Part shown: positions 1 through 23,785 of the stretch, piece by piece
How positions within the stretch are numbered: position 1 is the first letter of the stretch
Layout: each line of letters opens with the position of its first letter
Program-made: the position numbers and the translations under genes
Assembly (NCBI GenBank): GCA_045615365.1
Contig: JAZLEQ010000042.1
Coordinates: 41,375 to 105,374, forward strand
DNA length: 64,000 nucleotides
Direction of reading: 5' to 3'
Source: Alphaproteobacteria bacterium
GTDB taxonomy: Bacteria; Pseudomonadota; Alphaproteobacteria; RF32; CAG-239
Notes under the pieces: model-generated
The model's database searches: none
The model's input: only the letters and a program-made list of their open reading frames with translations
Told to the model about the DNA's origin: nothing

Positions 1-138
1 GCAACCTATTCTCCCATCCAAACAGAAAAAATCCCTAACAAATTTTTCGGCATGATAAAATCCAAACCTTCTGACGGATTTAAAATAAATAAAAAATTAG
101 GAGATTTTTTAAAAAACCTAAAAATTTAGTCAAAAAAC

Positions 139-167
139 TAGACAAAACAACATTTTGTTGTTATAAT
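139..167 (+). promoter_or_regulatory. candidate sigma70-type promoter for the 202-6210 operon
   Basis: TAGACA (139-144), 17-nt spacer, TATAAT (162-167), about 35 nt upstream of the ATG at 202. The spacer carries the inverted repeat ACAACA-TTT-TGTTGT (147-161), a possible operator. Confidence 0.35.
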
Positions 168-201
168 TACAAATATAAACAGTTTTACAAGGGGTTTAAT
201 C

Positions 202-2163
202 ATGAGTGAAGCAACAGACAAAATCCGCGGAAACGTTGCAAAAATCATAGAAAACAGGCCAACGAATCCTCATCCCAACAATAAAACACCTTCGGCAAAC
301 GTAAATACCACCGCAAACACAACCACAGCATCAAATTTCATTCGCGCTGCTGCAACCATGTATCGTGCCAAAACAAACCCGTCATTTCAAATGTCCGAAA
401 AGAGCAAAGATGACTACAATGCAGCACTCCAAGCCTATGCCGAAAAGCATGGAAAACCCCTTAACGATGTAAAAAAAGACACAACTCCTGAAGATATCAT
501 CAAATCATTCGCTCGCGATATTCAAAAAAATTCACAAAATTCCGAAGAAGCCACACAAATAATCAAAAAAGACATCGATTCGGCCTACAAAGACCATCCG
601 GACCAACCTGCTCCAACACCCCCTGCTCTTCAAGCAGCAGCCAATGTTCCTTATCTTACCGACAAACAATTTGAAGAAGCAGATGAAAAGACGCAAGAAG
701 AATATCTTGCAAGCTTAGACGGCTACGAAAAAGATCGCCTCACCGAACTTCTGAAAAACAAACAACAAAGCAAAACAAAAGATGAAGACAATGCCGCTAA
801 ACTCACAAACGATGAAGACAACCCGCTGCCTCATACGGAAGATGAAAAATTCAAAATTGAAGAAGGCGATATCATCAAATACCTGATGAAAGAGATAGTT
901 CTGGCTTCTGCCGCATGGGCAGGCAACAAGGCAGCCGGAATGATAGGAACATTTGGTTTTTATGTTGCCAGAGAAGCTTGGCACGCATATAAAAACCGCG
1001 AAAAAAACAACATTTCCGGATCTGCAAACGCTCAAACCAATCAAAATCAAAATCCGCCCCTGAGTCAGCCTCAAAATCAACCCCAAACTCAAGAACAAAA
1101 TCCAAAAGAACTTTTTGATGTTCTTACAAATGTTTCGCAAATAAGCTCAGAATTTAAAAACCTTTTTGACAAATACGAAAAAGGTTTTGATCTTGTTTTG
1201 ACCAATACCTTGGCGCTTATGCAACACAACGCTTATTTTGATGGAAACAAATATAAATACGCAAAAACTTTCAATTCTTCAAACAACAAATTAGCCGGCT
1301 TCTCCGCTTTTAATGTTAACGAAGAACAAAAAACAGAATGGAAAGATTTGCAAAAAGCCTATGACAAACAAAGGCTTGAATCCTTAAACAAAAAGTTAAA
1401 TCCGGAGCAAGATTCTGCCAAGCAACAACAAATAACCGATTGGTTTAACCAAGTAAATAAAAGTCACGAGGAAGCAATAAAAAACGAAAAGGATACCGTT
1501 TCATCCCCCTCTCTACCGACAGAATTTGAAAAAGCCTTAAAGGAAACAAACGAAGAAATTTCTCAAAAGATAGTCGTTTCTCTTCACAATCAAAAGCTTA
1601 AACGACAAAATGAGCTTTTTGCCTACATGTATGCATCATACAAAATAGTCGAGCTTAGTATAAACTCCCCTTCTGACCCCCGTCTCACACAAACAGAAAA
1701 TTTAGAAAAACTTCACAAACAACTGTTTGAAGAAGGTTCAATCATTTTCTGGAAAGCAGAAAAAAGACGTTTAAACGGAGAAAACATCCCCTCTCGCGAA
1801 ACAATGATTGAAAAAATGACTAAACTTGCCAAAGATTCTAAAGAGGCAAAAGAAAACAACGCTTCGTTCAACTTTCCATCTCTTGATCTGTCTTACAAAC
1901 CCAAAGACAATCAAGAAAAACAAACTCTTTTAGACTTTGCCCAAAACACAACCGTTATTGATTTTTACAAAAACGAATTAATAAATAAAAAAACTCACAT
2001 TCAAGAGCTTCAAACAATTTTTAACATGAATCAAGACCACGACACCAGAACCCTCTTAGATAAGATAAAAATACAACGAAATTCTTTAGAAACAGAACAA
2101 AATAATACAAAAATAGGTTCTTTCAAAATTAACGAACTGAAAACTAAAACGGTTGGTATGTAA
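202..2163 (+). CDS. hypothetical 653-aa low-complexity (K/N/Q/E-rich) protein with one central hydrophobic segment
   Basis: Long ORF with AAGGGG upstream of the ATG. One predicted TM-like stretch (LASAAWAGNKAAGMIGTFGFYVA) is followed by a QNQNPPLSQPQNQPQTQEQNP tract. No recognisable catalytic motif. Its stop overlaps the next start (TAATG at 2161-2165). Confidence 0.7.
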   Translation: MSEATDKIRGNVAKIIENRPTNPHPNNKTPSANVNTTANTTTASNFIRAAATMYRAKTNPSFQMSEKSKDDYNAALQAYAEKHGKPLNDVKKDTTPEDIIKSFARDIQKNSQNSEEATQIIKKDIDSAYKDHPDQPAPTPPALQAAANVPYLTDKQFEEADEKTQEEYLASLDGYEKDRLTELLKNKQQSKTKDEDNAAKLTNDEDNPLPHTEDEKFKIEEGDIIKYLMKEIVLASAAWAGNKAAGMIGTFGFYVAREAWHAYKNREKNNISGSANAQTNQNQNPPLSQPQNQPQTQEQNPKELFDVLTNVSQISSEFKNLFDKYEKGFDLVLTNTLALMQHNAYFDGNKYKYAKTFNSSNNKLAGFSAFNVNEEQKTEWKDLQKAYDKQRLESLNKKLNPEQDSAKQQQITDWFNQVNKSHEEAIKNEKDTVSSPSLPTEFEKALKETNEEISQKIVVSLHNQKLKRQNELFAYMYASYKIVELSINSPSDPRLTQTENLEKLHKQLFEEGSIIFWKAEKRRLNGENIPSRETMIEKMTKLAKDSKEAKENNASFNFPSLDLSYKPKDNQEKQTLLDFAQNTTVIDFYKNELINKKTHIQELQTIFNMNQDHDTRTLLDKIKIQRNSLETEQNNTKIGSFKINELKTKTVGM

Positions 2164-2636
2164 TGAAAAAAGCTCTCAAAATTCTAAACAAACTGCTGGT
2201 TTTGTCTTTTTGGACATTTATTTTCGTTTCCGTATTTAACAAACTAATTGTTATTATATGGAATTTTGATTTTCTGTCACAAAGGTCATGGCAAATTTTT
2301 CACGAATGGTTTATTACCAACAAAGGTGTTATAAACACTAAATCCGATGTTTTCCTGCTGATAACAATACTGTTGTTACCGATTCTTTGGCTGACAGGCT
2401 GTTTTTTCACAACCAAAATAAACTTTTTAAAACTTATTCTTACCATGTTTGACAAGCTTTTTGACAACTCAAAAAAATTTATTCCGGAAAGAATAGTTTT
2501 AAAAAACATCAAGAGCGAAGAAAAAGAACTTGAAGAAATAAAAAACGAAATAGAATCCTTCAAACCCAAAAAAACATCCTTAGCCTCCTCTTTGAGAGAA
2601 GAATTAACAAAAAAAATATCAGAAACAAAAAAATAA
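2163..2636 (+). CDS. small membrane protein, paralog of the N-terminal module of the next gene
   Basis: 157 aa with two hydrophobic segments and a charged coiled C-terminus. It shares an ordered set of motifs with ORF 2691-3956 (FW-IF, W-FD, W..W, G-VI, P-WLT, KIN-). Confidence 0.7.
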   Translation: MKKALKILNKLLVLSFWTFIFVSVFNKLIVIIWNFDFLSQRSWQIFHEWFITNKGVINTKSDVFLLITILLLPILWLTGCFFTTKINFLKLILTMFDKLFDNSKKFIPERIVLKNIKSEEKELEEIKNEIESFKPKKTSLASSLREELTKKISETKK

Positions 2637-2690
2637 CCTATTGTTAAACTTTTATAAGCTAATATAATAGAAAGAAAAATCGGGAGAATC

Positions 2691-3956
2691 TTGTTGAAAC
2701 CTTTACTGACATTACTAAAAGTCGCTGTTGTTGGCATTTTTTGGAGCATCTTTTTCATTGAAGGAATCCGTGTAATAATGCTCAACAACTGGTATTTCGA
2801 CATTTTTCGTCTGTCGCATTGGGTTCACGCATGGAAACTTTGGCAATCAGGTTGGGTTATAGACGACCCGAAAGAATGGGCATTTATTTTAATAGTTTTT
2901 TCTTTCATACCGGTTTGGCTCACCATATGGATTTCCCTAAGCAAAATAAATTGGGGTGCAATATTTGTCCTTTTAAGCAAAATTCCATTCAAAATCATAA
3001 ACAATCTTTTTGAAAAACAACTTAAGGTTTTAACAAACACCGCTTCGGTTAAGGTTGTCAAAAAGAAAAAATCATATAAACAGATTCGTCCTAAAAGTCT
3101 CTCAGGAGCCTTAGAAACTTCAAGTGCCAAGCCACAAACATCTTTTGAAAACAAACAACAACCGACTTTTCAACAAACACCAACATCTTCAACATACACC
3201 CCAACAACACAACCTGTTCAACAACCGGCTCAATCTTCTCAAACAAGCAGTTTTTCTCATTCTTTGTTTGATATGGACGACGACCCCATAATAGATTTTG
3301 ATTTGTTTGAAGAAAAAGAAACCTCAAAACAAGAATCGAAAGATTTTTCGGAAAAAAACAAAAAACAACATCAAGCACAACAAACTCCTCAAAAGAAGAA
3401 AACATCCGAAAAAAAACCAAACAATCAACAAACTCAAACTCCAAGGAACAAATCCGGCGAAGCCAATTCTTCTTTTGAAATCATCAAACAAAAAGGCTAC
3501 GACATCATCTCAGGAGCAACTATTGATAACACATTTATTGACTTTGTCGGTGTTTCCAAAGATGCAATTTGCATCTGCCTAAACGACAAAGAACCTGGTG
3601 ATTGGCTTGCTGACGAAGAACGCTTCAACGACGAAGAACCCCTATGGTTTTCCGAAAGTTCCCACCGCATTTCTCCTGTCAGAAAGATAGCTTTGGTGCG
3701 CGATGCTTTGGAAGAAAAACTCAAAAAAGCCGACCTTTCTTTCAATATTATTCCTTTTGTCATTGAACAAATAGGCAACATTATCAACGCAGAAGACATG
3801 CTCGATATATGGAAAGATTTAGGCATTAACGTAACCCGTATTGACAGAGGTTCCCCTCGTGAAATTCCTTTGTTTGCAAAAACTCTGGAAAAAGCAGAAT
3901 CTTCCGTAGATAAAAACGTATTTGAAAAAATCAAAAAAATATTAAGAAACAATTGA
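2691..3956 (+). CDS. membrane protein: paralogous N-terminal module, Q/P/T/K-rich linker, C-terminal NERD / PD-(D/E)xK-like domain (inferred)
   Basis: TTG start. The N-terminal 90 aa are homologous to ORF 2163-2636. The C-terminus (FIDFVGVSKDAICICLNDKEPGDWLADE...WFSESSHRISPVRKI) follows the D...(D/E)xK...W...SP(I/V)R order of NERD-type nuclease-related domains. The domain call is by eye only. Confidence 0.6.
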   Translation: MLKPLLTLLKVAVVGIFWSIFFIEGIRVIMLNNWYFDIFRLSHWVHAWKLWQSGWVIDDPKEWAFILIVFSFIPVWLTIWISLSKINWGAIFVLLSKIPFKIINNLFEKQLKVLTNTASVKVVKKKKSYKQIRPKSLSGALETSSAKPQTSFENKQQPTFQQTPTSSTYTPTTQPVQQPAQSSQTSSFSHSLFDMDDDPIIDFDLFEEKETSKQESKDFSEKNKKQHQAQQTPQKKKTSEKKPNNQQTQTPRNKSGEANSSFEIIKQKGYDIISGATIDNTFIDFVGVSKDAICICLNDKEPGDWLADEERFNDEEPLWFSESSHRISPVRKIALVRDALEEKLKKADLSFNIIPFVIEQIGNIINAEDMLDIWKDLGINVTRIDRGSPREIPLFAKTLEKAESSVDKNVFEKIKKILRNN

Positions 3957-3975
3957 TAAATCTTTAGAGGTTATA

Positions 3976-6210
3976 ATGGCTATACAAAAAGAAGGTGAAG
4001 AGTGGAAAGAATATAACAATGCCGTTCGTTGGATGTCTATTGTTGCAATCGTCTCTTTATTAATAACAATATTTTTTGCAATAACCGCCATGCCTTTAGC
4101 CTATTTGGTAGGAAAAGGTATTTCTGCAGACAGCCTTGAAGATGTTAAAAAATTTTTATTTCTAACCTTTAATAAGTCTGGTTTTTTATTCAATCGCTAC
4201 TGGATTTGGATGAAACAACTATACGAATATCGCGGTCCTTTTTCCTTAAGTTTATGGCTTCCGATAATTCCTGTAATAAGCTTTCCCGTAGGGCTGGTAT
4301 TAGGAATTATCACCAACCCATATCGTTTTCAATCAAACATACACGGTTCTGCTCGTTTGGCAGATTTTAACGACATCAAAAAAATGGGACTTTTTGATGG
4401 CTTTTGCGTAGTAATAGGCAAATTCAAAGGTCGCCTGCTGAAAATGAACGAAACATTATCCGTTCTATGCTGCGCACCTCCGGGAACAGGTAAAACCGTT
4501 GGGGTTGTTATGCCAACCATCTTTAATTCACAAGGGATGAGCATTGTCGTAAACGACCCCAAGCCTGAACTTTGTTTTTCAACATCAGGCGCTCGCGCCA
4601 AAGTCGGACCGGTATTTATCATCAACTGGGGTATGGAAGATAGTCCTGAAGAAGGCATCTACTACCCGAGTTGGAACCCGCTTTCCCCCGGAGCTGTTCC
4701 TGTTGTTCCGTCTGCTCGTGATATGTATGTCGATTCCATGTGCAATATTTTAGTTGAAGACCCAAAAGGCGGTGCCGATCCCCACTGGTCAAAAACAGGT
4801 CGTGCAGCCCTCACCGGCTTCATCCATTTTATAGTATCAAAATGCGAACGAGCTCGTGCTAACGATTATTTCATCGGCCGTGTTTTTGAAGGAAAGCTTG
4901 ATGAAGAAGATAAAAGAGTTTTGGAAGGATACTATACATCAATGGGAGATCCCATGGCCGTAAAAGCCCTGCAAAATCTTCGCTCAAACACTATAAACAT
5001 TGATAACTATGTGCCAATCGGAACATGGAATCTTCTGCCTGAAAAATGGATTGGACATGAAGCCTGTATTGCCATGATTCTTGAATGGATCACCGAAGCA
5101 CAAATCAAACAAGCCCAAGAAATCAAACGTCGTTTAGAAGAAGGCGACCAAATGGCAGCCATGGCCGACCCCATGCGCGACCTTTTGGAAGCAGCTGTTG
5201 ATGAATGCCGCAAATTTGGCTATTCACCTCGTTCAATAGTTGAATTAAGCCAACTAAGCTCCATGCCTGACAAAGAACGAGGTTCTGTTCTTTCCACTGC
5301 CTTTGCCGGTATCAACATTTTCAAAAACTCGGCGGTTGTGGCTCGCACAAGCTTCTCCGACATCATGTTCAAAGACTTGCGTGGCTTAAAAGACCCCATT
5401 ACCGGCGAATTCAAACCCATCACCGTATACCTTTCGGTTAACCAAGTTGATGCCAGAGCTTTGAGTGTTATTTCAGGAACATTTATTGACCTTATGTCAT
5501 CCTATCTCATTGCCAACACACCAAACTTTGTAAACCCAACCGACGGAAAAATGGGACCGTTTCCTTGTTTATTTGCAATGGACGAGTTTCCGGCCATGCC
5601 CAAACTCAAAGCGGTTATTGACGGACCGGCCGTAGGACGCGGACAAAAAGTTTCATACCTTCTCATCGGACAAGACTTAGGACAAATTTCCGGAAAATAC
5701 GGTAAAGACGATTTGGAAACAGTAATATCCACCACCGCTTGCAAAATCATTCTTTCGCAAAACAACGAGCAAACAGCCCAACGTTTTTCCAAAATGATTG
5801 GTAACAAAACCGTTCAAACATCTTCATATTCAAAAAATGAAGGTGGGTTCTCCAAAGCGGCCAATCCTTTTGCCAAAAACGTAAGCTATCAATTAACCGG
5901 TGTCTCACTCATTTCAACCACCCAACTTTTGAGCTTACCCACATCTAAACAGGTTGTATTAATGCAAAACTACATTGACCGCCCGATTATGGCCGATTCT
6001 CCTCGTTGGTATCTTGATCCTAAGATGAAAGCCTTGCGAGCTCTACCTCCGGCACCAAACGTCCCCGATTGGATTGTTGCCCAACGCGAAGACATCAACG
6101 ACGACATGCTCGCCAAACTCGGAATCGAATACGACCCCGAAAACGATAACGAAGATTTTTCAGAGTTTGAAGAAGACAAATACGAAGAAGAAACAGAAGA
6201 CCAAGCCTAA
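3976..6210 (+). CDS. virD4: type IV secretion system coupling protein, VirD4/TraG family
   Basis: 744 aa with N-terminal TM helices, [15 protein letters not shown], Walker [18 protein letters not shown], Walker B-like LFAMDEFP and an acidic C-terminal tail ([19 protein letters not shown]). RBS GAGG lies upstream. Confidence 0.9.
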
Positions 6211-6401
6211 TTTTCTTCTACGTTTTGTTCCTGAGAAAGCGCTTTTTCAAGCTCTTCCACGTCTTGTTCATCGATTCTTGTTGCTTCAAAGGTATATTTT
6301 TCGGAAAACCAATTACCCAAATCAATATCTGCACATCTTTTGCTGCAGAAAGGTTTGTATTTCAAATTTTCAACTTCTTTTTTACAAATAGGACACTTCA
6401 T
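6207..6401 (-). CDS. yacG: DNA gyrase inhibitor YacG (zinc-ribbon protein)
   Basis: 64 aa with CPICKK...[16 protein letters not shown], matching the YacG signature. It overlaps the rng-like stop by 4 nt and converges on the virD4 stop with a 4-nt overlap. Confidence 0.85.
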
Positions 6402-8699: not shown

Positions 8700-9149
8700 C
8701 TACAACATCAACTTAGCTAATTCCACTTCAACTCTCAACTCTATTTCATCAATAATTTCTTTAAGTTTTTCATCTGTAGTTTCAGCATTTTTTTGCTTAA
8801 CCAAGCGTGATATTTCAATAAGTCTGTCTTTAGAAATTTCTCCAAGCAACAATCCGTCTCTTATTTCCTCAAGCTTATCCAGTAAAGTTTTACCCTTATT
8901 TATCAACTTTCTTTTTATAAGTTTTTCTTCCTCACCATCAACTGCTTGCGCCAAAAAAATAGCATCAACTGAAGTAATATTAGACGTTGTTTGCACTTGT
9001 GTTTCTTTTTTATCGGCAATTCCGCTCAAATAATCAGCAAAATTTTCACTTCCGCCCACTCTGTTTGCCGATCTTGTTTTTGAAACATCACTATTTTTTC
9101 TTATATCATTAACCTTAAACAAAAAAACATCCCCTAGAAAAAAGTCCAT
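8700..9149 (-). CDS. fliX: FliX-like class II flagellar assembly regulator (inferred)
   Basis: VDAIFLAQAV...RKLINKGKTLLDKLEEIRDGLLLGEIS...LKEIIDEIELRVEVELAKL matches my recollection of the FliX family pattern (LLALQ...RRRAV.RG..LLD.L..L..ALL.G...L.EIE.RA.VELAKL). An alternative TTG start at 9122 would remove the 16-nt overlap with the upstream gene. Confidence 0.55.
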   Translation of the reverse strand: MDFFLGDVFLFKVNDIRKNSDVSKTRSANRVGGSENFADYLSGIADKKETQVQTTSNITSVDAIFLAQAVDGEEEKLIKRKLINKGKTLLDKLEEIRDGLLLGEISKDRLIEISRLVKQKNAETTDEKLKEIIDEIELRVEVELAKLML

Positions 9150-9778
9150 TTTATACTATTATTATCACCATTTGAACAAGCGCCTGAAATATCACTTGGA
9201 TTAACCGGAAGAACAAAAGAATCTTCTTTTTTATTGTTTGGCAAGTCAAATGTTTTCTTATAAAGAGCTTCTTTTGTCGCATCTCCCTGAAAGTCTTTAT
9301 TTTTATTTAATTCTAATTTATACAAAATCAAAGAACCTTTTGTAGACCAATTCATACTGGCTAAGGTTCTGCAGGTTTTGTTTTTTAAACCGTCAAAAGT
9401 AATGGAATATCGTCCGTTAGCATCAACAACATTTCCATTCATATCAAGCACCTTCGCCTGTTCAACCACAACACTTCCTTTTCCGCTGTGAATCAGTTTA
9501 TTATTATTACACATTTTAAACGGAGCTAATTTATCTTTACATATATTTTCATCCGCATTTCCCGTAAACAAAGCTTTATAAGTTCCGTCAAACTGATATT
9601 TTGAAGTTATTGCTTTTTGTAAATCTCTTATTTCGGAAGATATCATAGACTGGTTAAACATATCAAAAACAGCGCCTATCATTTTTATAATAGATATTCC
9701 CAACATCGAAATAACCGTCAAAGTAGCCAAAGCCTCCATCATTGTGGCACCTTTTTGACTGTTTTTATGTAGAAACAT
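9134..9778 (-). CDS. type IV pilin / pseudopilin-like protein with a prepilin-type N-terminal signal
   Basis: The start at ATG 9778 is preceded by GGAGG. The N-terminus MFLHKNSQKG|ATMMEALATLTVISMLGISII has the basic leader, Gly, Glu at +5 and hydrophobic helix typical of prepilin peptidase substrates. C-terminal Cys residues are compatible with disulfide loops. Confidence 0.6.
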   Translation of the reverse strand: MFLHKNSQKGATMMEALATLTVISMLGISIIKMIGAVFDMFNQSMISSEIRDLQKAITSKYQFDGTYKALFTGNADENICKDKLAPFKMCNNNKLIHSGKGSVVVEQAKVLDMNGNVVDANGRYSITFDGLKNKTCRTLASMNWSTKGSLILYKLELNKNKDFQGDATKEALYKKTFDLPNNKKEDSFVLPVNPSDISGACSNGDNNSIKWTFF

Positions 9779-9926
9779 TTTTCCTCCTTGAAACAACTTC
9801 AATTATATTAACATTAAAAAACGATATAAACAACAAATTATGTAATTTTTTTCTTTTCTTTTTTCTTTTATGATTTTATAGTATATTTGTTTTTATTAAT
9901 AAACAAAAAATAAAAGGGAGACTTTA

Positions 9927-14521: not shown

Positions 14522-15775
14522 ATGAATTTAAAAGATTTAAAACAAAAATCTCCTGTTGAGTTATTAACTCAAGCAGAGAAACTTGGCATAGAAGACGCTT
14601 CTTCAATGCGCAAGCAAGACCTTATGTTTGCAATTCTCAAAAAAACAGTTGGAGAAGACGAAGCTATAACAGGTGAAGGTGTAATTGAAGTTATGCAAGA
14701 CGGCTTTGGATTCTTGCGTTCTTCAGAATCAAACTATCTGGCAGGTCCTGATGATATATATGTATCTCCCGCTCAAGTTAAAAAGTTTGGTCTAAGAACC
14801 GGCGATACAGTTGAAGGGGAAATTCGTGCACCCAAAGAAAACGAAAGATATTTTGCTTTGGTAGATATAAATAAGATTAATTTTGATAATCCTGAAAAAT
14901 CAAAATTGCGAGTAAATTTTGACAACCTCACACCATTATATCCGAATGAAAAACTGAATTTTGATATAATTTGCGGTGATAAAGATTATACCACCCGCGT
15001 TATAGACTTAATATCTCCGCAAGGAAAAGGACAAAGAGGTCTGATTGTAGCACCTCCTCGCACAGGTAAAACGGTGATGTTGCAAAATATAGCTCATGCT
15101 ATTGCAGAAAACCACCCTGAATGCTATTTAATGGTCTTATTGATAGATGAACGCCCTGAAGAAGTAACCGATATGACTCGCTCTGTTAAAGGCGAAGTTA
15201 TATCATCAACTTTTGATGAACCGGCAACACGTCACGTTCAAGTTGCTGAAATGGTTATTGAAAAAGCTAAAAGGCTCGTTGAAAATAAAAAAGATGTTGT
15301 AATTTTACTCGACTCAATCACCCGTCTTGGCAGAGCCTACAACACAGTTATTCCTTCATCAGGAAAAGTTTTAACCGGTGGTGTAGATGCCAATGCACTC
15401 CAAAGGCCTAAAAGGCTTCTTGGAGCCGCTCGCAATGTTGAAGAAGGCGGATCACTAACCATAATTGCAACCGCACTAATTGATACCGGTTCAAGAATGG
15501 ACGAAGTTATTTTTGAAGAATTTAAGGGAACAGGTAATTCTGAAATTATATTGGATAGAAAATTAACCGATAAGAGATTATTCCCAACCATTGATATAAC
15601 CCGTTCCGGCACCAGAAAAGAAGAACTTTTGGTAAATAAAGATATTCTTACCAAAATGTGGGTATTACGTCGTGTTCTTATGCAAATGGGAATGACCGAC
15701 GGCATGGAATTTTTGCTTGATAAATTAAAAGTCAGCAAAGATAATAACGACTTCTTTAATAACATGAATTCTTAA
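14522..15775 (+). CDS. rho: transcription termination factor Rho
   Basis: N-terminal [10 protein letters not shown]..., cold-shock-like RNA-binding domain (GFGFLR), P-loop PPRTGKT and [11 protein letters not shown]. Confidence 0.97.
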
Positions 15776-15780
15776 ACAAA

Positions 15781-15809
15781 AAAAAGCTCCTGAATTAGGA
15801 GCTTTTTTT
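15781..15809. terminator. bidirectional rho-independent terminator
   Basis: AGCTCCT (15785-15791), loop GAATT, AGGAGCT (15797-15803), flanked by an A-run and a T-run, between convergent rho and the HAD gene. Confidence 0.75.
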
Positions 15810-15810
15810 A

Positions 15811-16470
15811 TTAACTGAAATTTTTTATCAAAAATTCATTCACATCTTTCATATTATCAAAAACATGTTCTACAGGCATTTTTTTAATTTCTTCTTTATA
15901 ATAATCATTGCTATACTGAATAAAAGCAACAGGAGTCATTTTTGCACTTATAGCAGCTCTAAGCCCTGCTAATGAATCTTCCACCACAATACAATCTTTT
16001 GGTTCATATCCCATAGATTTTGCCGCCAATAAAAACAAATCAGGTTCAGGTTTTCCTACTTTAACCATATCCACCGTAAAAACTTTTTCTTCCGGAAAAT
16101 ATTTTCTGATACCCACACTTTCAATTTTTAATTTTGTTTTATTTTTAATTCCTCCGGTTGCAATACATTGTTCAAAATTTTTGTTATTAAAAATATCTTC
16201 AAGTCCGTCTGTTAACACAAAACCTTCTTCATATTTTTTTGCATCCATTGCCCAAACTTTTTTCCAAAAAGCATCATCAATATTTATTCCCAATTTTGCA
16301 AAAACAACTTTTTTATCATTATCGCTCATTCCGCCGATATTTTTAAAAGTATCAATCAAACTCCAATTTGTTCCGTAAGATTGATTCAAAACTTCCATTC
16401 TGTTAATCACCCAAAGTTTTTCTGTATCGGCAATAACACCGTCAAAATCCCAAATTATTAATTTTTTCAT
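15811..16470 (-). CDS. HAD-superfamily hydrolase (beta-phosphoglucomutase-like subfamily)
   Basis: IIWDFDGVIADTE motif I, ATGG, and VVEDSLAGLRAA. The start is set at ATG 16470 (MKKLII..., RBS AGAGGAAAA). Confidence 0.8.
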   Translation of the reverse strand: MKKLIIWDFDGVIADTEKLWVINRMEVLNQSYGTNWSLIDTFKNIGGMSDNDKKVVFAKLGINIDDAFWKKVWAMDAKKYEEGFVLTDGLEDIFNNKNFEQCIATGGIKNKTKLKIESVGIRKYFPEEKVFTVDMVKVGKPEPDLFLLAAKSMGYEPKDCIVVEDSLAGLRAAISAKMTPVAFIQYSNDYYKEEIKKMPVEHVFDNMKDVNEFLIKNFS

Positions 16471-16644
16471 ATTTTCCTCTAAAAAAACAGCTTCGCAGGA
16501 AGCCCACACAAAAGAATTTAGAAGATTCTATAATATATTGATTAAAAAAATATAAAAACCCTCTCTTGAGTCAAAAAAAAGCTTTTTTGTGCTTGCAAGA
16601 TTTTTCTAATGATTTTATAACTCTAAAACAAGAGGAAAAATCAA

Positions 16645-17976
16645 ATGACAAACAAAACCATATATGCTCTATCAACCGTAAACGGAAAATCCGGTGTTGC
16701 CATAATTCGTATATCAGGCGACAAAGCAATCAATGTTATAAGAAACATGACAGATATTTCTGTAGAAAATATAATTCCCAGAAAAGCCTATTTTTCAAAT
16801 ATTAAAGATTTATCGGGCAATCTGCTGGATAAAGCCCTGATTATGTATTTTTCTGCACCAAACTCTTTTACGGGAGAAGATATCGTAGAACTTCATCTTC
16901 ATGGTTCAAAAGCTGTCATATCATCAGTATTGGCTTGTTTGTCATCACTAGAAGATTTTCGTTTAGCCGAAGCCGGAGAATTTTCTAAAAGAGCGTTTTA
17001 TAACAACAAAATGGATTTAACCGAAGCCGAAGGTTTAGCAGATCTTATAGATGCTGAAACCTCCGAACAACAAAAATACGCATTAAGACAAATAGAAGGA
17101 AATCTAAAAAATCTTTATGACGGATGGCGAGAAGAACTCCTAAGAATAATGAGTCACCTTGAAGCATACATAGATTTCCCTGATGAAGACTTACCTTCTG
17201 ACATTATTGAAAATATGCAAAACACTGTATTTAAAATTAAAGAAGATATAAAAAAGCATCTTTCGGGTAATAATATTGGTGAAAGGCTGAGAGATGGCTT
17301 TAGAGTTGCAATTATAGGCGAACCTAATTCCGGCAAGTCATCGCTTGTAAATACCATTGTCGGCAGAGAGGCCGTAATTGTTTCAGACATAGCAGGAACA
17401 ACCCGTGACGCTATAGATATTCATCTTAATGTAAGAGGATATCCGATAATTATAACAGATACTGCAGGTTTGCGAAATACAGATGAATCTATTGAAAAGA
17501 AAGGAATAGAAATAGCTTACAAAAAAGCAAACGAAGCCGATTTTGTAATATGTTTATTTGATGCCGAAAAAACAATTCCGCAAGAGTTTTCAAATATTGC
17601 AGGAAACAAAAGCATTTATGTTGCCAACAAATGCGACAAACTATCTCAAGAAACAATAAGTTTGCTTAAAAATAAAGGTTATACAACCATTTCAGCAAAA
17701 CAAAATCAAGGAATTGAAGATATATTTGAAATTATAGGAAACAAGATATCTGAAGAATTTTCTTCAACTTCCGGATATTTAATAACTCGTCAACGTTATC
17801 AAGAAGCTTTAAGAAACACTGTTAATTGTTTGGAAAACTTTAATTTTGATAAAGAAATAGAGCTTTCAGCCGAAGATTTGCGATTAGCTTGTAGAGAGAT
17901 CGGAAAAATCACCGGAAGAATAGAGATAAATGAAATATTAGATAAAATTTTCGGCTCTTTTTGTATTGGGAAATAG
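16645..17976 (+). CDS. mnmE: tRNA modification GTPase MnmE
   Basis: [13 protein letters not shown]-domain [10 protein letters not shown] / DTAG / NKCD, and the C-terminal FCIGK motif. Confidence 0.95.
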
Positions 17977-17977
17977 A

Positions 17978-19825
17978 ATGTTAGAAGAATTTGATGTAAT
18001 AGTTGTCGGAGGCGGTCATGCCGGTTGTGAAGCGGCGGGCGCATCATCAAGAATGGGAGCAAAAACAGCTTTGATAACCCATAAAATATCAACAATAGGT
18101 GCAATGTCATGCAATCCTGCCATAGGTGGATTAGGAAAAGGACATTTAGTCAGAGAGATAGATGCTCTTGACGGATTAATGGCAAAAGTCATTGATAAAG
18201 CCGGAATACAGTTTCGCATGCTTAACCAATCCAAAGGCCCTGCTGTTAGAGGTCCGCGAGCACAAGCCGACAGAGAATTATATAAAAAACACATGTTAGA
18301 AGCTCTCAACGAGCAAGAAAACCTCACAATAATTGAAGCTTCTGCAGAAGGTCTTGTTTTTGAAGAAAACAAGATAAAAGGCATAATTTTATCTGACAAA
18401 ACGGTTATAAAATCCCAAGCTGTAATTTTAACTTCAGGAACATTTTTAAACGGACTTATATTTATAGGTCACGAAACAACGGTTGGTGGAAGGATAGATG
18501 ATGTTTCATGTTCCGGTATAACACCGTATTTAAAGCAAATGGGATTAAATTTAGGGCGCTTAAAAACAGGAACACCTGCCCGTTTGAACGGAAAAACCAT
18601 AAACTGGGATATTTTGGAAAAACAAGAAGGTGATGAAAAACCAACCCCCTTCTCTTTTCTAAACAAAGAAATTTCTAATCCGCAAATAAGTTGCTATATA
18701 ACCCACACCAACGAAGAAACTCATAAAATAATTCGTGACAACTTCAACAAGTGTGCCTTATTTTCCGGCTTAATTACCGGATTAGGCCCCAGATATTGTC
18801 CAAGCATAGAAGATAAATTAGTCAAATTTGCAGACCGCACATCTCACCAAATATTTTTGGAACCTGAGGGTTTGAACACAGATGTTGTTTATCCTAACGG
18901 GATTTCAACCTCCTTACCTGCAGATGTTCAAGATGCTTTCATTCACACTATGAAGGGCTTAGAAAATGTTGAAATTTTGAAACCCGCATATGCAATAGAA
19001 TATGATTATGTTGATCCTAAAGAATTAAACAATAAACTTGAATGTAAAAAGATAAAAAACTTGTTCCTTGCCGGTCAAATAAACGGAACAACAGGCTATG
19101 AAGAAGCTGCAGCTCAAGGATTGGTTGCAGGTATTAATGCGGCCCTAAAATCACAAAACAGTGACAAAGAATTTACTATTGACCGCTCAGAGGCATATAT
19201 TGGGGTTATGATAGACGATCTTATCACCAAAGGTGTTGACGAACCATATCGTATGTTTACCTCACGCTCTGAATACAGGCTTTATTTGCGCGCAGACAAT
19301 GCGGATATGCGTCTAACCGAAAAAGGATATCAAATAGGTTGTGTAAGTCCTTTAAGATACAGTGTATTTAAAGATAAAAAACAACAAGTAGAAGCTTTTA
19401 GAAAATTAAGCAACAACCTGTCTGTTTCGGCAAAAGACCTAAAATCTGTAAATTTAAATATAAAGCAAGACGGTTCTAAAAAGACTTGTTTTAATCTTTT
19501 ATCTTACCAAGATGTTTCACATGAAACACTATTAAACATATGGCCTGGTTTAGCAAATATTTCCAACGATGTTTTTGAACAAATAGAAATAGAAGCAAAA
19601 TATTCAGGCTATATAAAAAGACAGCTTGCTGATATTGAAGTTTTCAAGAAAGATGAAAATTTAAAAATAAGAGAAGATATTGACTATTCAAAAATAGGTG
19701 GACTTTCTCGTGAAATGATATTTAAGCTTTCATCGGTTAAGCCTTCAACCATAGGTGAGGCTTCTCGCATACCGGGAGTGACGCCTGCAGCCATAACAGC
19801 ATTACTTGGATATATAAAAAAATGA
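17978..19825 (+). CDS. mnmG: tRNA uridine 5-carboxymethylaminomethyl modification enzyme MnmG (GidA)
   Basis: [18 protein letters not shown] motif and [23 protein letters not shown] at 17978, two nt after the mnmE stop. Confidence 0.95.
19513..19528. promoter_or_regulatory. parS-like centromere site (15/16 to consensus)
   Basis: TGTTTCACATGAAACA versus consensus TGTTTCACGTGAAACA. It lies inside mnmG (encoding VSHET) and is identical to the copy at 21444-21459. Confidence 0.65.
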
Positions 19826-20433
19826 GTAAATTACCTGATATAAAACAAATGATATGTTTGTGGCAAGAAAGTCTTTCGGGGGTTCTTTCTTATGCAAGCG
19901 ATAAAATAAAAATAGATTATATTTATCATACAACGATTGTTGCAAAAACGGCTTCAATAATAGCTGAAAAAAGTGGTTTAGATAAAGAAAAAGCATATGC
20001 TTTGGGTTTGCTTCATGATTATGGTAAAATAAAAAACGAAAAACTCGGTATGCCTCATTTTTTAGAAGGATACTATCAAATGATGTCTTTAGGTTTTCCG
20101 GATATTGCAAAAATTTGCTTAACTCATAGTTTTCCCATAAAAGATTTTAGTTTCAAAGACTATACTTCGTATAATAAAAATTTTCTTTCTCAAACAAAAG
20201 AGTTGTTGTCAAAAATTGAGTTTGATTATTACGATCGTTTAATTCAATTTTGCGACATTATTTCTGAAGGCAAAGACCTTGTTAAATATGAAGCTCGTTT
20301 GGAGTGTATTCGTAACCGCTACAATCTGACCGACGAGCAAACAAAAAATTTGAAAGTTGGAGCCGAACAAAACAAAGCCTGTTTTGACAAGTTGTGCGGT
20401 TGTGATGTCTATACTCTGTTAAAGATATCTTAA
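19822..20433 (+). CDS. HD-domain phosphohydrolase (YqeK-like by inference)
   Basis: [12 protein letters not shown] (the HD dyad) plus an upstream His. 203 aa. ATGA overlap with the mnmG stop. Confidence 0.65.
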
Positions 20434-20471
20434 TTTGTTTATTATAGTTTTGCCAATCAAGGAGATTTTTT

Positions 20472-21290
20472 ATGCAAAACTGTAACTATCATTGTCACAC
20501 AAGCTTTAAGGGGATTTTTGACGGCAGAAACACACCCGACGAAATGATTTCCGCATACGAAGAAAAGGGTTTTTCCAAGATTGGAATCAGTAATCATTGT
20601 GTGTGTCATCCGACAATAGCCAAAATGCCTTTTATGAGTCCGCAATTTTTTTCAGACAACAATAAATTCGTTGATATATACAAAGAAAGTTTCGAATCGA
20701 TAGATGAGGCGGCCGCAAAACACTCCATAAAAGTATATAAAGGGTTGGAAGTTGATTTTTTTCCTTCAAAAGAGTGGCACCAATCCTTTGAATTTATAAT
20801 GAAAGAGCTAAATCCCGATTATATTATAGGCTCAACACACTTTATTCGCAGCAAAGCAGAAGATTTAATGTGTGGCATATATTTTCTAAACACCCTGCCC
20901 TCTTTAACAAAAGAGGAGAAGGATGAACTTTTGCGTAATTATTGGGAAAATATTTTAATGTCAATAAAAAGCGGTTATTTCAAATTTATAGCCCACATAG
21001 ACTATTGTTGCCAGTTTAATTTATGCACCGGTTCAGAATGGGATGAATATAAGTATAAAGTAATAGACGCTTTATATAAACACAATACCGCTTGCGAAAT
21101 AAACACGGGAGGTCTCCGACGTATTGGGCGCCCATTTCCTGATTGGTGGATGATAAAAGAGATGATAAAAAAAGAAATTCCTTTAATTATAAGCGACGAT
21201 GCTCATCAAACCTCACAAACAGCCTCTCATTTTGTTGAGGTTGAAAACAAATTGAAAGAACTTGGTTGTAAAAAACGTTTTTCTTTTTAA
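20472..21290 (+). CDS. PHP-domain phosphoesterase (histidinol-phosphatase HisJ-like family)
   Basis: N-terminal YHCHTSF (HxH), GISNHC, STHF, IAHIDY and SDDAH, the ordered metal-ligand motifs of PHP/HisJ enzymes. Confidence 0.7.
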   Translation: MQNCNYHCHTSFKGIFDGRNTPDEMISAYEEKGFSKIGISNHCVCHPTIAKMPFMSPQFFSDNNKFVDIYKESFESIDEAAAKHSIKVYKGLEVDFFPSKEWHQSFEFIMKELNPDYIIGSTHFIRSKAEDLMCGIYFLNTLPSLTKEEKDELLRNYWENILMSIKSGYFKFIAHIDYCCQFNLCTGSEWDEYKYKVIDALYKHNTACEINTGGLRRIGRPFPDWWMIKEMIKKEIPLIISDDAHQTSQTASHFVEVENKLKELGCKKRFSF

Positions 21291-21417
21291 GAGAAAGATT
21301 CAATATCAGGTGTTTAAGTTGTTGTTTTAAAATAAATTTTGTTTTTGTTGTAAATATGTGTTTATAACTGTTATTTTTTTATTTTAAATTTTTTATAAAA
21401 AATATAAAAAATAAATT

Positions 21418-22056
21418 ATGAAAAATATTGCAGAAAAATACAATGTTTCACATGAAACAATTACCGATTTAAACACCTACCACACTCTTCTTATTGAATG
21501 GCAGGAAAAGATAAATTTGGTTAGTGATTCAAGTTTGTTACAAGCAAAAACACGCCATTTTGAAGACTCTGTTCAGCTTTTTAAGTATATTCCAAAAGGC
21601 GCGGAAACCTTAATAGATTTTGGTTCTGGGGCTGGTTTTCCTGCTCTTGTTTTAGCAATAATTGCAAAAACAGAAACGCCGTATTTAAATATAAGCATGG
21701 TTGAGAGTATTAAGAAAAAAACAGTGTTTTTAAAAGAGGTCGCCGAAAAAACCGGAACAAAGGTTCAAATAATAAACGATAGAATCGAAAATGTTAAAAC
21801 TCAAAAGTTTGATGTTATAACTTCAAGAGCAATGACATCTCTTGATAATCTGTTGAATTATTCATACAGGTTTTGTTCAAAAAACACTGTTTGTATTTTT
21901 CCGAAAGGAAAAAAATATGCTGAAGAACTTTCACTTGCTCATAAAAAATGGAATTTTAAATGCTGTATTGAACCAAGCTCAATATCAGATGAAGGAAAAA
22001 TTTTAATTATAACCAAGCTATCAAAAAAAGGAGAAAATAAATGCCAAGAATTTTAG
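21418..22056 (+). CDS. rsmG: 16S rRNA (guanine527-N7)-methyltransferase RsmG (GidB)
   Basis: SAM motif IDFGSGAGFPALVLAI, TSRA, and position between mnmG and parA. Confidence 0.92.
   Translation: MKNIAEKYNVSHETITDLNTYHTLLIEWQEKINLVSDSSLLQAKTRHFEDSVQLFKYIPKGAETLIDFGSGAGFPALVLAIIAKTETPYLNISMVESIKKKTVFLKEVAEKTGTKVQIINDRIENVKTQKFDVITSRAMTSLDNLLNYSYRFCSKNTVCIFPKGKKYAEELSLAHKKWNFKCCIEPSSISDEGKILIITKLSKKGENKCQEF
21444..21459. promoter_or_regulatory. parS-like centromere site (15/16 to consensus)
   Basis: TGTTTCACATGAAACA inside the 5' end of rsmG (encoding VSHET). Identical to 19513-19528. Confidence 0.65.
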
Positions 22057-22817
22057 CTGTCGCAAACCGTAAAGGTGGTGTCGGTAAGACAACAACCGCC
22101 GTAAATGTTGCAACCGCTATGGCGGCTGCCGGTAAAAAAGTATTGTTGGTTGATCTTGATCCTCAAGGCAACGCAACAACATCAATGGGAATCGAGAAAA
22201 AAGGATCAATGAAGTCTTCATATGATGTATTAATCGGGGCTGCGCGACTGGCAGACGCAATAGTTTGGAGTGAAATTCCGGGTTTTTCATTAATTCCGTC
22301 ATCTGCTGATTTGGCTGCTGCCGAAATAGAGCTTGTTGATGTTGTAAAAAGAGAATTTTTATTAAAAAAAGCTTTAGAAAAAGATGCTGTAAATTATGAT
22401 TATGTTTTAATAGATTGTCCTCCTTCATTGAGTCTTGTAACAGTAAATGCGTTGGTTGCATCAGATGCTGTTATAATTCCTTTACAATGTGAGTTTTTGG
22501 CCTTGGAAGGAATTTCTGATTTAATAAAAAACATAAACACCATAAAAAAGAATTTTAATCCGTCGCTAACACTGCACGGGGTTGTTTTAACAATGTATGA
22601 TAAAAGAAACAACCTTACACAAATGGTTGAAGATGATGTTAGAAGTTTTTTCGGTAAAAAAGTATATGACACTGTAATTCCGCGCAATGTCAGAATTTCT
22701 GAAGCACCGTCGCATGGAAAACCTGTATTGCTATACGATTTTAAATGTTCGGGATCACAAGCTTATATCGGTTTAACCAAAGAAGTTTTGAAAAGAGAAA
22801 GAGAGTTGGCAGCATGA
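22041..22817 (+). CDS. parA: chromosome partitioning ATPase ParA
   Basis: Deviant Walker A ANRKGGVGKTTT, DLDPQGN, and IDCPPSL. Confidence 0.95.
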   Translation: MPRILAVANRKGGVGKTTTAVNVATAMAAAGKKVLLVDLDPQGNATTSMGIEKKGSMKSSYDVLIGAARLADAIVWSEIPGFSLIPSSADLAAAEIELVDVVKREFLLKKALEKDAVNYDYVLIDCPPSLSLVTVNALVASDAVIIPLQCEFLALEGISDLIKNINTIKKNFNPSLTLHGVVLTMYDKRNNLTQMVEDDVRSFFGKKVYDTVIPRNVRISEAPSHGKPVLLYDFKCSGSQAYIGLTKEVLKRERELAA

Positions 22818-23785
22818 TTGATGAAAAAAAGAAAAAAAGTCTGGGCAGAGGCTTAGAAGCCTTGCTGGGTGAAATGAATGAAGATGTGTTAAATGACGAA
22901 CTTAAAACAGTTACTCATGACACCAGTATAAATATTGACAGTATTACTGTCAGTCAGTTTCAACCGCGACGCGATTTTGATGAAAATGCCATAAATTCAT
23001 TGGCAGAATCAATCAAAGACAAAGGCGTTTTACAACCTCTGATAGTTCGTAAAAAAGAAAACGGATACGAACTTATTGCCGGTGAAAGACGCTTGCGTGC
23101 ATCAAAAATCGCCGGTTTACGGGAGGTTCCTGTAATTATTAAAGATTTAAGCGATCAAGAAGTTTTAGAAATAGCTTTGGTTGAAAATCTTATGCGAGAA
23201 AATCTTTCTCCGATAGAGGAAGCTTTAGCTTATCAAAATCTGATAGACGGCTTTTCACACACGCAGGAAAAAATAGCTAATATTGTAGGCAAGTCACGAA
23301 GTTATATAGCCAACACATTGCGTTTGCTTTCTTTGCCTGAAGAAATAAAATCTTTGGTTAGTGAAGGTAAACTTTCGGCTGGTCATGCTCGCTGTTTGGT
23401 GGGGCTTGACAACGCTTCAATTTTGGCCGATAAGATTATCAAAGAAGAACTGAATGTTCGTCAGGTTGAGGAACTCGTATCGCAACAAAAGAATTTTGAG
23501 AAAGAGCCGCAATCGTCTGAGTCAAAATCAAAAAAACCCGTAAAATCTTCCGATGTAACGGATATTGAACAAAATCTGAAAGAAAAGCTTGGTTTACGCA
23601 TAAAAATAACGCCAAGCAAACAAGGAGGAGGTAAGGTTGTTTTGCAATATTCATCTGTTGCGGAACTCGATATGATTGTAAACATATTAAACCAGAGAAA
23701 AAATCTTGAAATACCGGAACAAAACGCTGTATTTAAAGATGAAAGCCCGAAAAACGAAAAGTTTTCTATAAAATTTATTGAATAA
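22814..23785 (+). CDS. parB: chromosome partitioning protein ParB
   Basis: LGRGLEALL, GERRLRAS (arginine patch) and an HTH region QEKIANIVGKSRSYIANTLRLL. ATG 22814 overlaps the parA stop (ATGA). The track start 22745 is rejected. Confidence 0.95.
   Translation: MIDEKKKKSLGRGLEALLGEMNEDVLNDELKTVTHDTSINIDSITVSQFQPRRDFDENAINSLAESIKDKGVLQPLIVRKKENGYELIAGERRLRASKIAGLREVPVIIKDLSDQEVLEIALVENLMRENLSPIEEALAYQNLIDGFSHTQEKIANIVGKSRSYIANTLRLLSLPEEIKSLVSEGKLSAGHARCLVGLDNASILADKIIKEELNVRQVEELVSQQKNFEKEPQSSESKSKKPVKSSDVTDIEQNLKEKLGLRIKITPSKQGGGKVVLQYSSVAELDMIVNILNQRKNLEIPEQNAVFKDESPKNEKFSIKFIE

Follow-up and report, generated by a model that had tools for sequence, protein, structure and literature searches.

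A conserved gene block in gut Alphaproteobacteria links a VirD4-type coupling protein to divergent NERD-like membrane proteins

Described coupling-protein systems and the RF32 locus

Coupling proteins of type IVA secretion systems are generally pictured as acting alone or with soluble adaptors; a complex with dedicated membrane partners is known mainly for DotL, the coupling protein of type IVB systems. In the Dot/Icm system (DotL-DotM-DotN-IcmS/W-LvgA), a transmembrane (TM) protein with a cytoplasmic C-terminal domain is encoded directly upstream of the type IV coupling protein (T4CP), small cytoplasmic partners are co-encoded, and the recognition of acidic motifs is a theme. The hallmarks of the Rickettsiales vir-homologue (rvh) systems are a duplicated VirB8, multiple VirB6 paralogues and genes scattered in islands; in these systems virD4 closes a virB8-B9-B10-B11-virD4 operon. 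Here we describe a VirD4-type T4CP encoded by a 64-kb stretch of the genome of an alphaproteobacterium of the RF32 lineage (contig JAZLEQ010000042.1; 'the window', whose positions are used for all coordinates below except where a fetched locus is named). Its gene (3976-6210, 744 aa) is the last of four on the plus strand, following the open reading frames (ORFs) of three proteins that we call P1 (202-2163, 653 aa), P2 (2163-2636, 157 aa) and P3 (2691-3956, 421 aa, with a likelier start at 2694 judging from homologue starts). With moderate confidence, we read these four genes as the central part of a coupling-protein island that is inherited vertically, belongs to a dispersed, Rickettsiales-like type IV secretion system (T4SS) and has a new DotM-like membrane partner. 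New here are the obligatory association of VirD4 with P2/P3, the P3 family itself, and an extended module, U300-P1-P2/P3-VirD4-c19-c21, in which U300 is encoded before P1 and c19 and c21 after VirD4. A narrow literature search (orphan VirD4, RF32 secretion systems, SUKH proteins with a coupling protein) found no description of this module.

Like the T4CPs of P-type VirB/D4 systems (e.g., that of the Erythrobacter aureus operon considered below), this VirD4 has the shared Pfam families, two N-terminal TM helices, Walker A and B motifs, an all-alpha domain and an acidic C-terminal tail; unlike them, it is encoded outside a virB operon, in the chromosomal core and always behind P2/P3. It is also far more conserved than the T4CPs of mobile elements. 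The likeness to rvh systems lies in the presumed scatter of the genes over several chromosomal islands, in vertical inheritance within an alphaproteobacterial clade, and in the duplicated VirB8 and multiple tandem VirB6-like genes of sister lineages (loci L096, L092, L105, L090 and L088); however, virD4 sits here with P1, P2 and P3 instead of with virB8-B11, and the hosts appear to be flagellated gut bacteria (judging by fliX and other flagellar genes in the window), not obligate intracellular ones. The likeness of the P3-VirD4 pair to Dot/Icm, in gene order and topology, is by analogy only; the C-terminal domain of P3 is restriction-endonuclease/NERD-like, unlike DotM, and the T4CP is type IVA-like, not DotL.

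VirD4, its membrane partners and their conservation

The identification of the fourth gene product as a VirD4/TraG ATPase, made in a sequence-only reading of this DNA, is borne out by three Pfam families, each above its cutoff: PF02534 (T4SS-DNA_transf; E 4e-58, 197.8 bits, cutoff 20.1), PF12696 (TraG-D_C; E 4e-22, 78.9 bits, cutoff 22) and PF10412 (TrwB_AAD_bind; E 5e-15, 55.7 bits, cutoff 20.5). The Walker A motif (APPGTGKT) is encoded at 4474-4497 and the Walker B motif (LFAMDEFP) at 5566-5589; APPGTGKT and DEFP are invariant in 76 homologues. A TM scan places helices at residues 20-38 and 95-113, and the acidic tail is encoded at about 6121-6207, the last 30 residues having a net charge of about -11. 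Judged from its sequence, VirD4 is an intact ATPase of the T4CP family under strong constraint, and a divergent member of that known family: it falls under the cutoff of every NCBIfam T4CP subfamily (VirD4 PRK13897/PRK13850, IncP TraG, CD1115 and others were compared), with a best score of 138 bits against a cutoff of 250 and, for VirD4 PRK13897, 132.6 against 728. Its profile gave just a weak match in the PDB, to Cag-beta. The nearest annotated relative (35.6% identity over 81% of the length) is encoded by the Erythrobacter aureus plasmid NZ_CP031358, where it sits in a canonical virB4..B8-B9-B10-B11-virD4 operon.

The partnership of VirD4 with P2 and P3 was followed through related genomes. 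Clustered at 90%, the homologues of P3 number 1040, every one of them from a metagenome or a metagenome-assembled genome (MAG), and a scan with one genome per species found P3 relatives in 181 species genomes of gut Alphaproteobacteria. We fetched 80 loci, all from gut or rumen MAGs, labeled as Alphaproteobacteria bacterium, 'Proteobacteria bacterium CAG:495', 'Candidatus Scatocola', and uncultured Azospirillum or Azospirillaceae. In 85/85 loci P2, P3 and VirD4 are encoded by collinear neighbors, so the check by gene neighborhood that the sequence-only reading had called for gave recurrence throughout. Across RF32 species, VirD4 is 72-88% identical to the window protein; the corresponding values are 79-93% for DksA, 58-73% for Maf, 48-62% for Rng, 43-63% for P3 and 22-49% for P2, while P1 is 24-31% identical or recognizable only by a central motif of ~40 residues. 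By these identities the conservation of VirD4 is on a par with that of DksA.

Clustering of the ORFs identified an invariant block that consists of a gene for an rpoH-like sigma factor (minus strand), rluD (minus), DUF6476 (plus) and U300 (plus), followed by the genes for P1, P2, P3 and VirD4; U300 precedes P1 in 74 of 81 loci. The upstream flank (the rpoH-like sigma factor gene and rluD) is constant, and the downstream set yacG-rng-maf-dksA-fliX is found in only 38/85 loci. The block, vertically conserved in each of the related genomes covered, is itself core, and the side that rearranges is the downstream flank. DUF6476, a gene of ~95 codons upstream of U300, was considered as a member of the module and set aside as a neighbor; it is linked in RF32 only and is absent from the module of the sister lineages.

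Searches of Pfam, NCBIfam and PDB sequences with P1, P2 and full-length P3 matched no VirB protein, relaxase, adaptor or anything else, in agreement with the sequence-only reading, in which none of the three resembled such proteins. Absent from that reading was a paralogy between two of them: P2 matches the N-terminal ~110 residues of P3 (BLASTP, E 8e-6; hhalign, 98.3% probability, E 2.6e-14, 109 columns) and is a truncated paralogue of this domain that is without the linker or the NERD-like domain. P2 and the P3 N-terminal domain each have two TM helices that are joined by a loop rich in aromatic residues and followed by a basic juxtamembrane motif; in P3, the helices are residues 5-23 and 65-83 and the motif is VKVVKKKKSYK.IRP. 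From the positive-inside rule, the linker and C-terminal domain of P3 are predicted to be cytoplasmic. The linker (residues 119-258 in the alignment and the AlphaFold2 (AF2) model) is disordered and Q/P/T/K-rich, with a conserved acidic/aromatic motif, FDFDLF. In sister lineages, two full-length P3 paralogues (P3a and P3b) take the place of P2 and P3.

The C-terminal domain of P3 (residues 253-421, plus strand, 3447-3956) is assigned to a divergent NERD / PD-(D/E)xK fold by AF2, Foldseek and profile comparison. When the domain was modeled alone with a diverse alignment, AF2 gave a predicted local distance difference test score of 95.3 and a predicted template modeling score of 0.90, and the model has the alpha-beta-beta-beta-alpha-beta core of the PD-(D/E)xK fold. 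Its Foldseek matches (NucS, AF1548, Card1, R2 RLE, EndoMS, Bax1, VC1899 and N.BspD6I) all have this fold, with E-values that are all weak, the best being NucS at E 0.015 and probability 1.0; the full-length P3 model returned only noise, so that the domain-only model with a diverse alignment was required. The structural comparison proposed in the sequence-only reading has yielded a fold for this one domain and no known T4SS component. In the family, D284 is present in 53/65 members and D299 in 54/65; the position of the canonical Lys is occupied by E (E301, 38/65) or Q (7/65), so the catalytic D...(D/E)-x-K triad is incomplete, K300 being the variable 'x' position.

Sub-threshold matches to NERD (PF08378) occur in 25/65 members of the family (best E 7.3e-5); the window P3 domain covers nearly the whole profile and misses the threshold with 16.1 bits against 22.1. 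The domain thus shares with NERD and PD-(D/E)xK proteins the order of the fold and nearly full-length profile matches, and the TM-anchored architecture is common in the NERD family; it differs in falling below threshold, in the replaced Lys, in its link to VirD4 and in an invariant, family-specific insert of its own, GDWLADEE.FN.E.PLWFSE..H..SP, which is its most conserved element and is followed further on by the invariant INAEDM..W...V.V.R. We conclude from the model that P3 carries a divergent NERD / restriction-endonuclease-fold domain that is probably cytoplasmic. The family (371 representatives at the 50% cluster level) is missing from Pfam and NCBIfam; it is a widespread, unannotated family of TM-anchored divergent NERD proteins, for which several lineages show a link to VirD4 or VirB6. 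The same domain also occurs in giant proteins in which it stands between TPR and Roc/COR GTPase-TIR, in a TPR-[domain]-GHKL-like protein, in a fusion with a CbbX-like AAA+ protein and in tandem duplicates (P0222, 1513 aa; P0242, 1565 aa; P0261, 1802 aa; P0283, 529 aa; P0256; P0274); these architectures are typical of conflict systems.

P1 and U300 have a different character. P1 is hypervariable, coiled-coil or low in complexity; its orthologues range from 432 to 755 aa with almost no invariant residues, a database search gave 2 matches only, and the conserved central motif is GD.I..YLM plus a hydrophobic stretch (about residues 221-250); the protein evolves very fast. The charge of its C-terminus is undistinctive as a secretion signal, with 23.5% of the other ORFs equally or more basic. 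U300 is a soluble protein of ~300 aa that has an acidic stretch, DDFDxLLDDF, at the N-terminus and a basic C-terminus (charge +5.3, against a background of 0.5 +/- 2.8); its profile gave no match in the PDB. One species (L028, 4542-10534) carries a tandem duplication of U300-P1-P2 ahead of the regular U300-P1-P2-P3-VirD4 block.

Sister lineages and competing explanations

In RF32 and four other lineages, namely L089, L171, L090 and a second gut lineage (L092-L109), the gene for P3 directly precedes that for VirD4; the gene pair is conserved across lineages in which VirD4 is only ~60% identical (56-62%). In L089 and L171 the order is P3, VirD4 (56-59% identical to that of the window), c19 and c21; in L090, which has a high GC content, two VirB6-like genes on the minus strand are followed by P3a, P3b, VirD4 (60%), c19 and c21. 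The second gut lineage was found by a metagenome scan with the VirD4 alignment (GC 0.45-0.58, VirD4 57-67% identical); its order is two or three VirB6-like genes (minus strand), then U300-like, P1-like, P3a, P3b, VirD4, c19 and c21. P3 occurs as well in L088, where a U300 homologue precedes a P1-like gene and P3 and VirB6-like paralogues flank the group with no VirD4 nearby, and in L172, where two VirB6-like paralogues lie 6-8 kb away. After the module, on the opposite strand, the second gut lineage encodes DUF1189 membrane proteins (up to 64 bits; L092, 13881-15466; L096, 13830-14984; L105, 13926-14744, all minus strand), and L096 also encodes a DUF5665 protein.

The VirB6-like proteins were assigned by PF04610 (VirB6/TrbL-like; threshold 25.9 bits), with 26.1-33 bits in L088, L090, L092 and L105 (33 and 29.5 bits for the genes of the second gut lineage) and a score just under the threshold in L172. 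The VirB proteins of the Erythrobacter aureus plasmid served as probes in a search of the window together with the 172 fetched loci, 2.85 Mb altogether. Matches were found in L096 only, where VirB8 is encoded by two genes in tandem (76.6 and 41.3 bits) and VirB9/CagX by one (47.9 bits), 6-9 kb upstream of P3a-P3b-VirD4-c19-c21. Because sister modules adjoin VirB6-like genes and, in one locus, VirB8 x2 and VirB9, the VirD4 is most likely an island of a dispersed type IV system and not a true orphan. The sequence-only reading had called it an orphan; this description holds within the 64-kb window and within +/-10 kb of all RF32 loci.

In 31/81 RF32 loci and in the sister lineages, VirD4 is followed on the same strand by c19 and c21, which overlap each other (median -26 nt; e.g., L019, 14100-15096; L051, 13588-14596; L089, 11285-12366; L090, 9846-11372; L092, 12376-13884). 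The c19 protein (~190 aa) has an invariant MWEWS/MWDWS N-terminus, a variable Pro-rich middle and a C-terminal motif whose alignment with the HNH motif of a DNase, pyocin AP41, is weak (E 0.064); the His that acts as general base in colicin-type HNH proteins appears to be substituted. The c21 protein (~150 aa) has sub-threshold Pfam matches to SMI1_KNR4/SUKH, and its profile matches the SUKH structures 2icg (E 0.0058) and 2prv. Somewhat as in the bacteria-killing T4SS of Xanthomonadales, in which VirD4 recognizes the toxins (X-Tfe) and immunity proteins (X-Tfi) accompany them, sister lineages encode a nuclease-like protein and a SUKH immunity-type protein right after virD4; unlike in those systems, no XVIPCD signal domain was seen, c19 and c21 are conserved over deep divergence instead of being polymorphic, and they are absent from the window. 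The pair stays linked to VirD4 at only ~60% VirD4 identity, which is unusually stable for a toxin/immunity pair. The sub-lineage of the window has lost c19/c21 next to VirD4.

For the island reading we propose the following mechanism. P2 and P3 would assemble with the TM domain of VirD4 into an inner-membrane receptor platform, by analogy with DotM and DotL, to which they are not homologous; the suggestion of the sequence-only reading that the upstream proteins form a membrane or substrate-recruitment platform fits P2/P3, two-TM inner-membrane proteins of which P3 is so consistently encoded next to VirD4. The NERD-like domain of P3 and the acidic/aromatic motifs (FDFDLF in P3, DDFDxLLDDF in U300) may draw substrates or adaptors to the ATPase or retain them there, and the acidic tail of VirD4 (-11) may contact the basic C-terminus of U300 electrostatically. 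The alternative suggestion of that reading, that the upstream proteins are cargo, could apply to the hypervariable P1, a candidate for cargo or for an accessory factor that is exposed. The c19 and c21 proteins of sister lineages could be an effector with its cognate immunity protein, or else a pair of adaptors. The genes of the channel (VirB4, B6 and B8-B11) would lie at other sites in the genome, as they do in the dispersed systems of Rickettsiales.

Several points weigh against the island reading. The 64-kb window has neither a VirB gene nor a relaxase gene, and the same is true of the +/-10 kb around every RF32-type locus; the VirB6-like assignments barely exceed the Pfam threshold. In L086, P3 follows an atp operon with neither VirD4 nor VirB6 nearby. 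The P3 C-terminal domain is mobile and not exclusive to type IV secretion, and the window itself is without c19/c21, VirD4 abutting yacG. Physical contact of P2/P3 with VirD4 is a prediction. A DotM-like fold for P3 was considered and rejected: no DotM was among the Foldseek matches, no PDB sequence matched, and P3 has no similarity to any known T4CP adaptor.

The strongest competing explanation, which we nevertheless consider unlikely, is a VirB-independent machine. VirD4 and P2/P3 (with VirB6-like proteins in some lineages) would then make up a translocase of the inner membrane, or a motor that handles DNA, complete in itself, needing no classical VirB channel and serving a housekeeping-like role, for instance the movement of DNA or protein across or along this membrane. 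This explanation would account for a block that is core, syntenic, under very strong purifying selection and located in a housekeeping region (rho, mnmE, mnmG, rsmG, parA, parB), for the lack of VirB genes near any RF32 locus, and for partners that are kept more tightly than any VirB link; however, sister modules adjoin VirB6-like genes or VirB8 x2 and VirB9, the annotated relative closest to this VirD4 comes from a canonical operon, and known T4CPs all work with a VirB4-containing channel.

Also unlikely, and placed second among the competitors, is a DNA-processing or transfer module in which P3, through its membrane-tethered NERD-like domain (and, in sister lineages, the HNH-like protein), would bind or nick DNA and pass it on to VirD4 for export or exchange, in the role of an unconventional, relaxase-like partner; this explanation is partly compatible with the island reading. 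NERD was originally described as related to DNA processing, MOB_C relaxases are restriction-endonuclease-like, and T4CPs are related to DNA translocases. The P3 domain has a restriction-endonuclease fold in which the acidic D...D-x-E/Q motif, which we take to resemble variants in BamHI and BglII, is largely conserved, and c19 has an HNH motif. Yet the canonical catalytic Lys is absent, E301 is found in 38/65 members only, no oriT, relaxase or mobile-element hallmark is present at the locus, and its position in the chromosomal core is fixed; moreover, a SUKH partner suits a toxin/immunity logic better, and the same P3 domain occurs in conflict-system architectures. A bolder formulation seems to us distinctly doubtful, namely that the module is a VirB4-independent, self-sufficient translocation device or that P3 represents, with its NERD-like domain, a class of T4CP receptors or nucleases not described before, by which DNA or nuclease effectors are coupled to the ATPase; if either were true, the module would be an unrecognized coupling-complex architecture, fixed as a core trait throughout an order of gut Alphaproteobacteria.

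An anti-phage or conflict system in which the T4CP-like ATPase and nuclease-like proteins act in defense is very improbable. The occurrence of the P3 domain in TPR-Roc-TIR and AAA+ proteins, which are typical of conflict systems, would fit it, as would HNH with SUKH, a classic toxin/immunity pairing; however, PADLOC gave no match for P1, P2, P3, VirD4, U300, c19 or c21, and a fixed position, universal presence in the lineage and high conservation are the opposite of the behavior of defense islands. Scarcely credible, and contradicted by the synteny data, is an accessory insertion at the edge of core synteny, as the sequence-only reading had it, here understood as recently acquired or as a conjugative-element remnant: T4CPs are usually on mobile elements and virD4 (GC 0.43, GC content at third codon positions (GC3) 0.40) is slightly higher than its neighbors, but the GC3 is just above the range of gyrB, parE and radA, all related species have the block in one and the same place behind rpoH-rluD, its sequence divergence tracks that of neighboring core genes, and no integrase, relaxase, repeats or tRNA were seen. 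Horizontal transfer of the block was likewise rejected, given the weak GC3 excess and the universal conservation.

The locus thus presents a T4CP that is locked to a new, widespread nuclease-fold membrane family as a core chromosomal trait of abundant uncultured gut Alphaproteobacteria. If P2 and P3 do form a receptor platform with VirD4, as the island reading proposes, the DotM-type principle would extend to type IVA systems, the platform would provide a handle on the secreted substrates of gut bacteria (candidates are P1 and the HNH-like protein with its SUKH partner), and there would be a new T4SS-associated family to seek in Rickettsiales-like systems.

Transcription, boundaries and neighboring genes

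The ORF map agrees with the sequence-only reading on the arrangement of the four same-strand genes: P1 and P2 overlap at TAATG, the P2-P3 and P3-VirD4 gaps are 54 and 19 nt, and the stop codon of VirD4 (6208-6210) overlaps, tail to tail, that of convergent yacG (6207-6401, minus strand; PF03884, E 6e-18). We read the four genes as a tightly linked transcription unit that joins VirD4 to non-VirB partners. The junctions across related species are similar (medians of 2, 60 and 15 nt; the P2-P3 median of 60 nt is from 80 loci). The yacG gene is outside the system and marks its variable downstream boundary; beyond it are rng, maf, dksA and fliX. Upstream, the cluster reaches past the window, because bases 1-128 (plus strand) encode the C-terminus of U300, IPNKFFGMIKSKPSDGFKINKKLGDFLKNLKI followed by the stop codon, which agrees with the conserved C-terminus of the U300 family; the gene is cut by the window edge. 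The start of P3 is probably the TTG at 2694, because this start yields MKPLL as in the homologues and is preceded by a Shine-Dalgarno sequence, GGGAGA, at 2683-2688.

A sigma-70-type promoter, TAGACA-17-(TG)TATAAT (139-167, plus strand), precedes P1; it matches the consensus at 11/12 positions, has an extended -10 element and is the best plus-strand match in the region. Consensus matches in the region number 18, against 13.6 +/- 3.5 by chance, that is, there is no excess; however, nearly all related RF32 species retain both hexamers, in unchanged position between U300 and P1, around a spacer that diverges, and because of this conservation we regard the promoter, proposed in the sequence-only reading, as genuine. 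The inverted repeat that had been noticed in its spacer is indeed present (6 bp, AACAAC..GTTGTT), but it is not conserved in the homologous gaps of related species. A second promoter-like sequence, TTGTTA-16-TATAAT (2641-2668, plus strand; 10/12), lies in the P2-P3 gap and is a possible internal promoter from which P3-virD4 may also be transcribed separately.

Upstream of rpoH-rluD, 57 loci encode a conserved pair of a kinase-like protein and a multi-TM protein beside a GGDEF protein (e.g., L001, 1650-4129; L004, 1872-4477; L019, 2365-4985). The larger member (~680 aa) matches PF00069 at 3e-8 and has a C-terminal TM helix, and the overlapping member of ~160 aa is multi-TM; the pair was considered as paralogues of P1/P2 and rejected, the larger being a protein-kinase-like membrane protein.

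The remainder of the window contains housekeeping genes (rho, mnmE, mnmG, rsmG, parA, parB, radA, polA, gyrB and parE). The run rho, mnmE, mnmG, an HD-domain-like gene, rsmG, parA and parB is located at 14522-23785, 8-18 kb from the VirD4 block; the order rho-mnmE-mnmG-rsmG-parA-parB is typical of the vicinity of the replication origin in Alphaproteobacteria, and the block may sit near the origin. By fliX, an ORF of 222 aa (9134-9802, minus strand) encodes a type IV prepilin-like N-terminus that contains KGATMMEALATLTVISMLG; the ORF is kept in 32 related loci, and its orthologue in L004 has weak Pfam marks of Bundlin/PilS.

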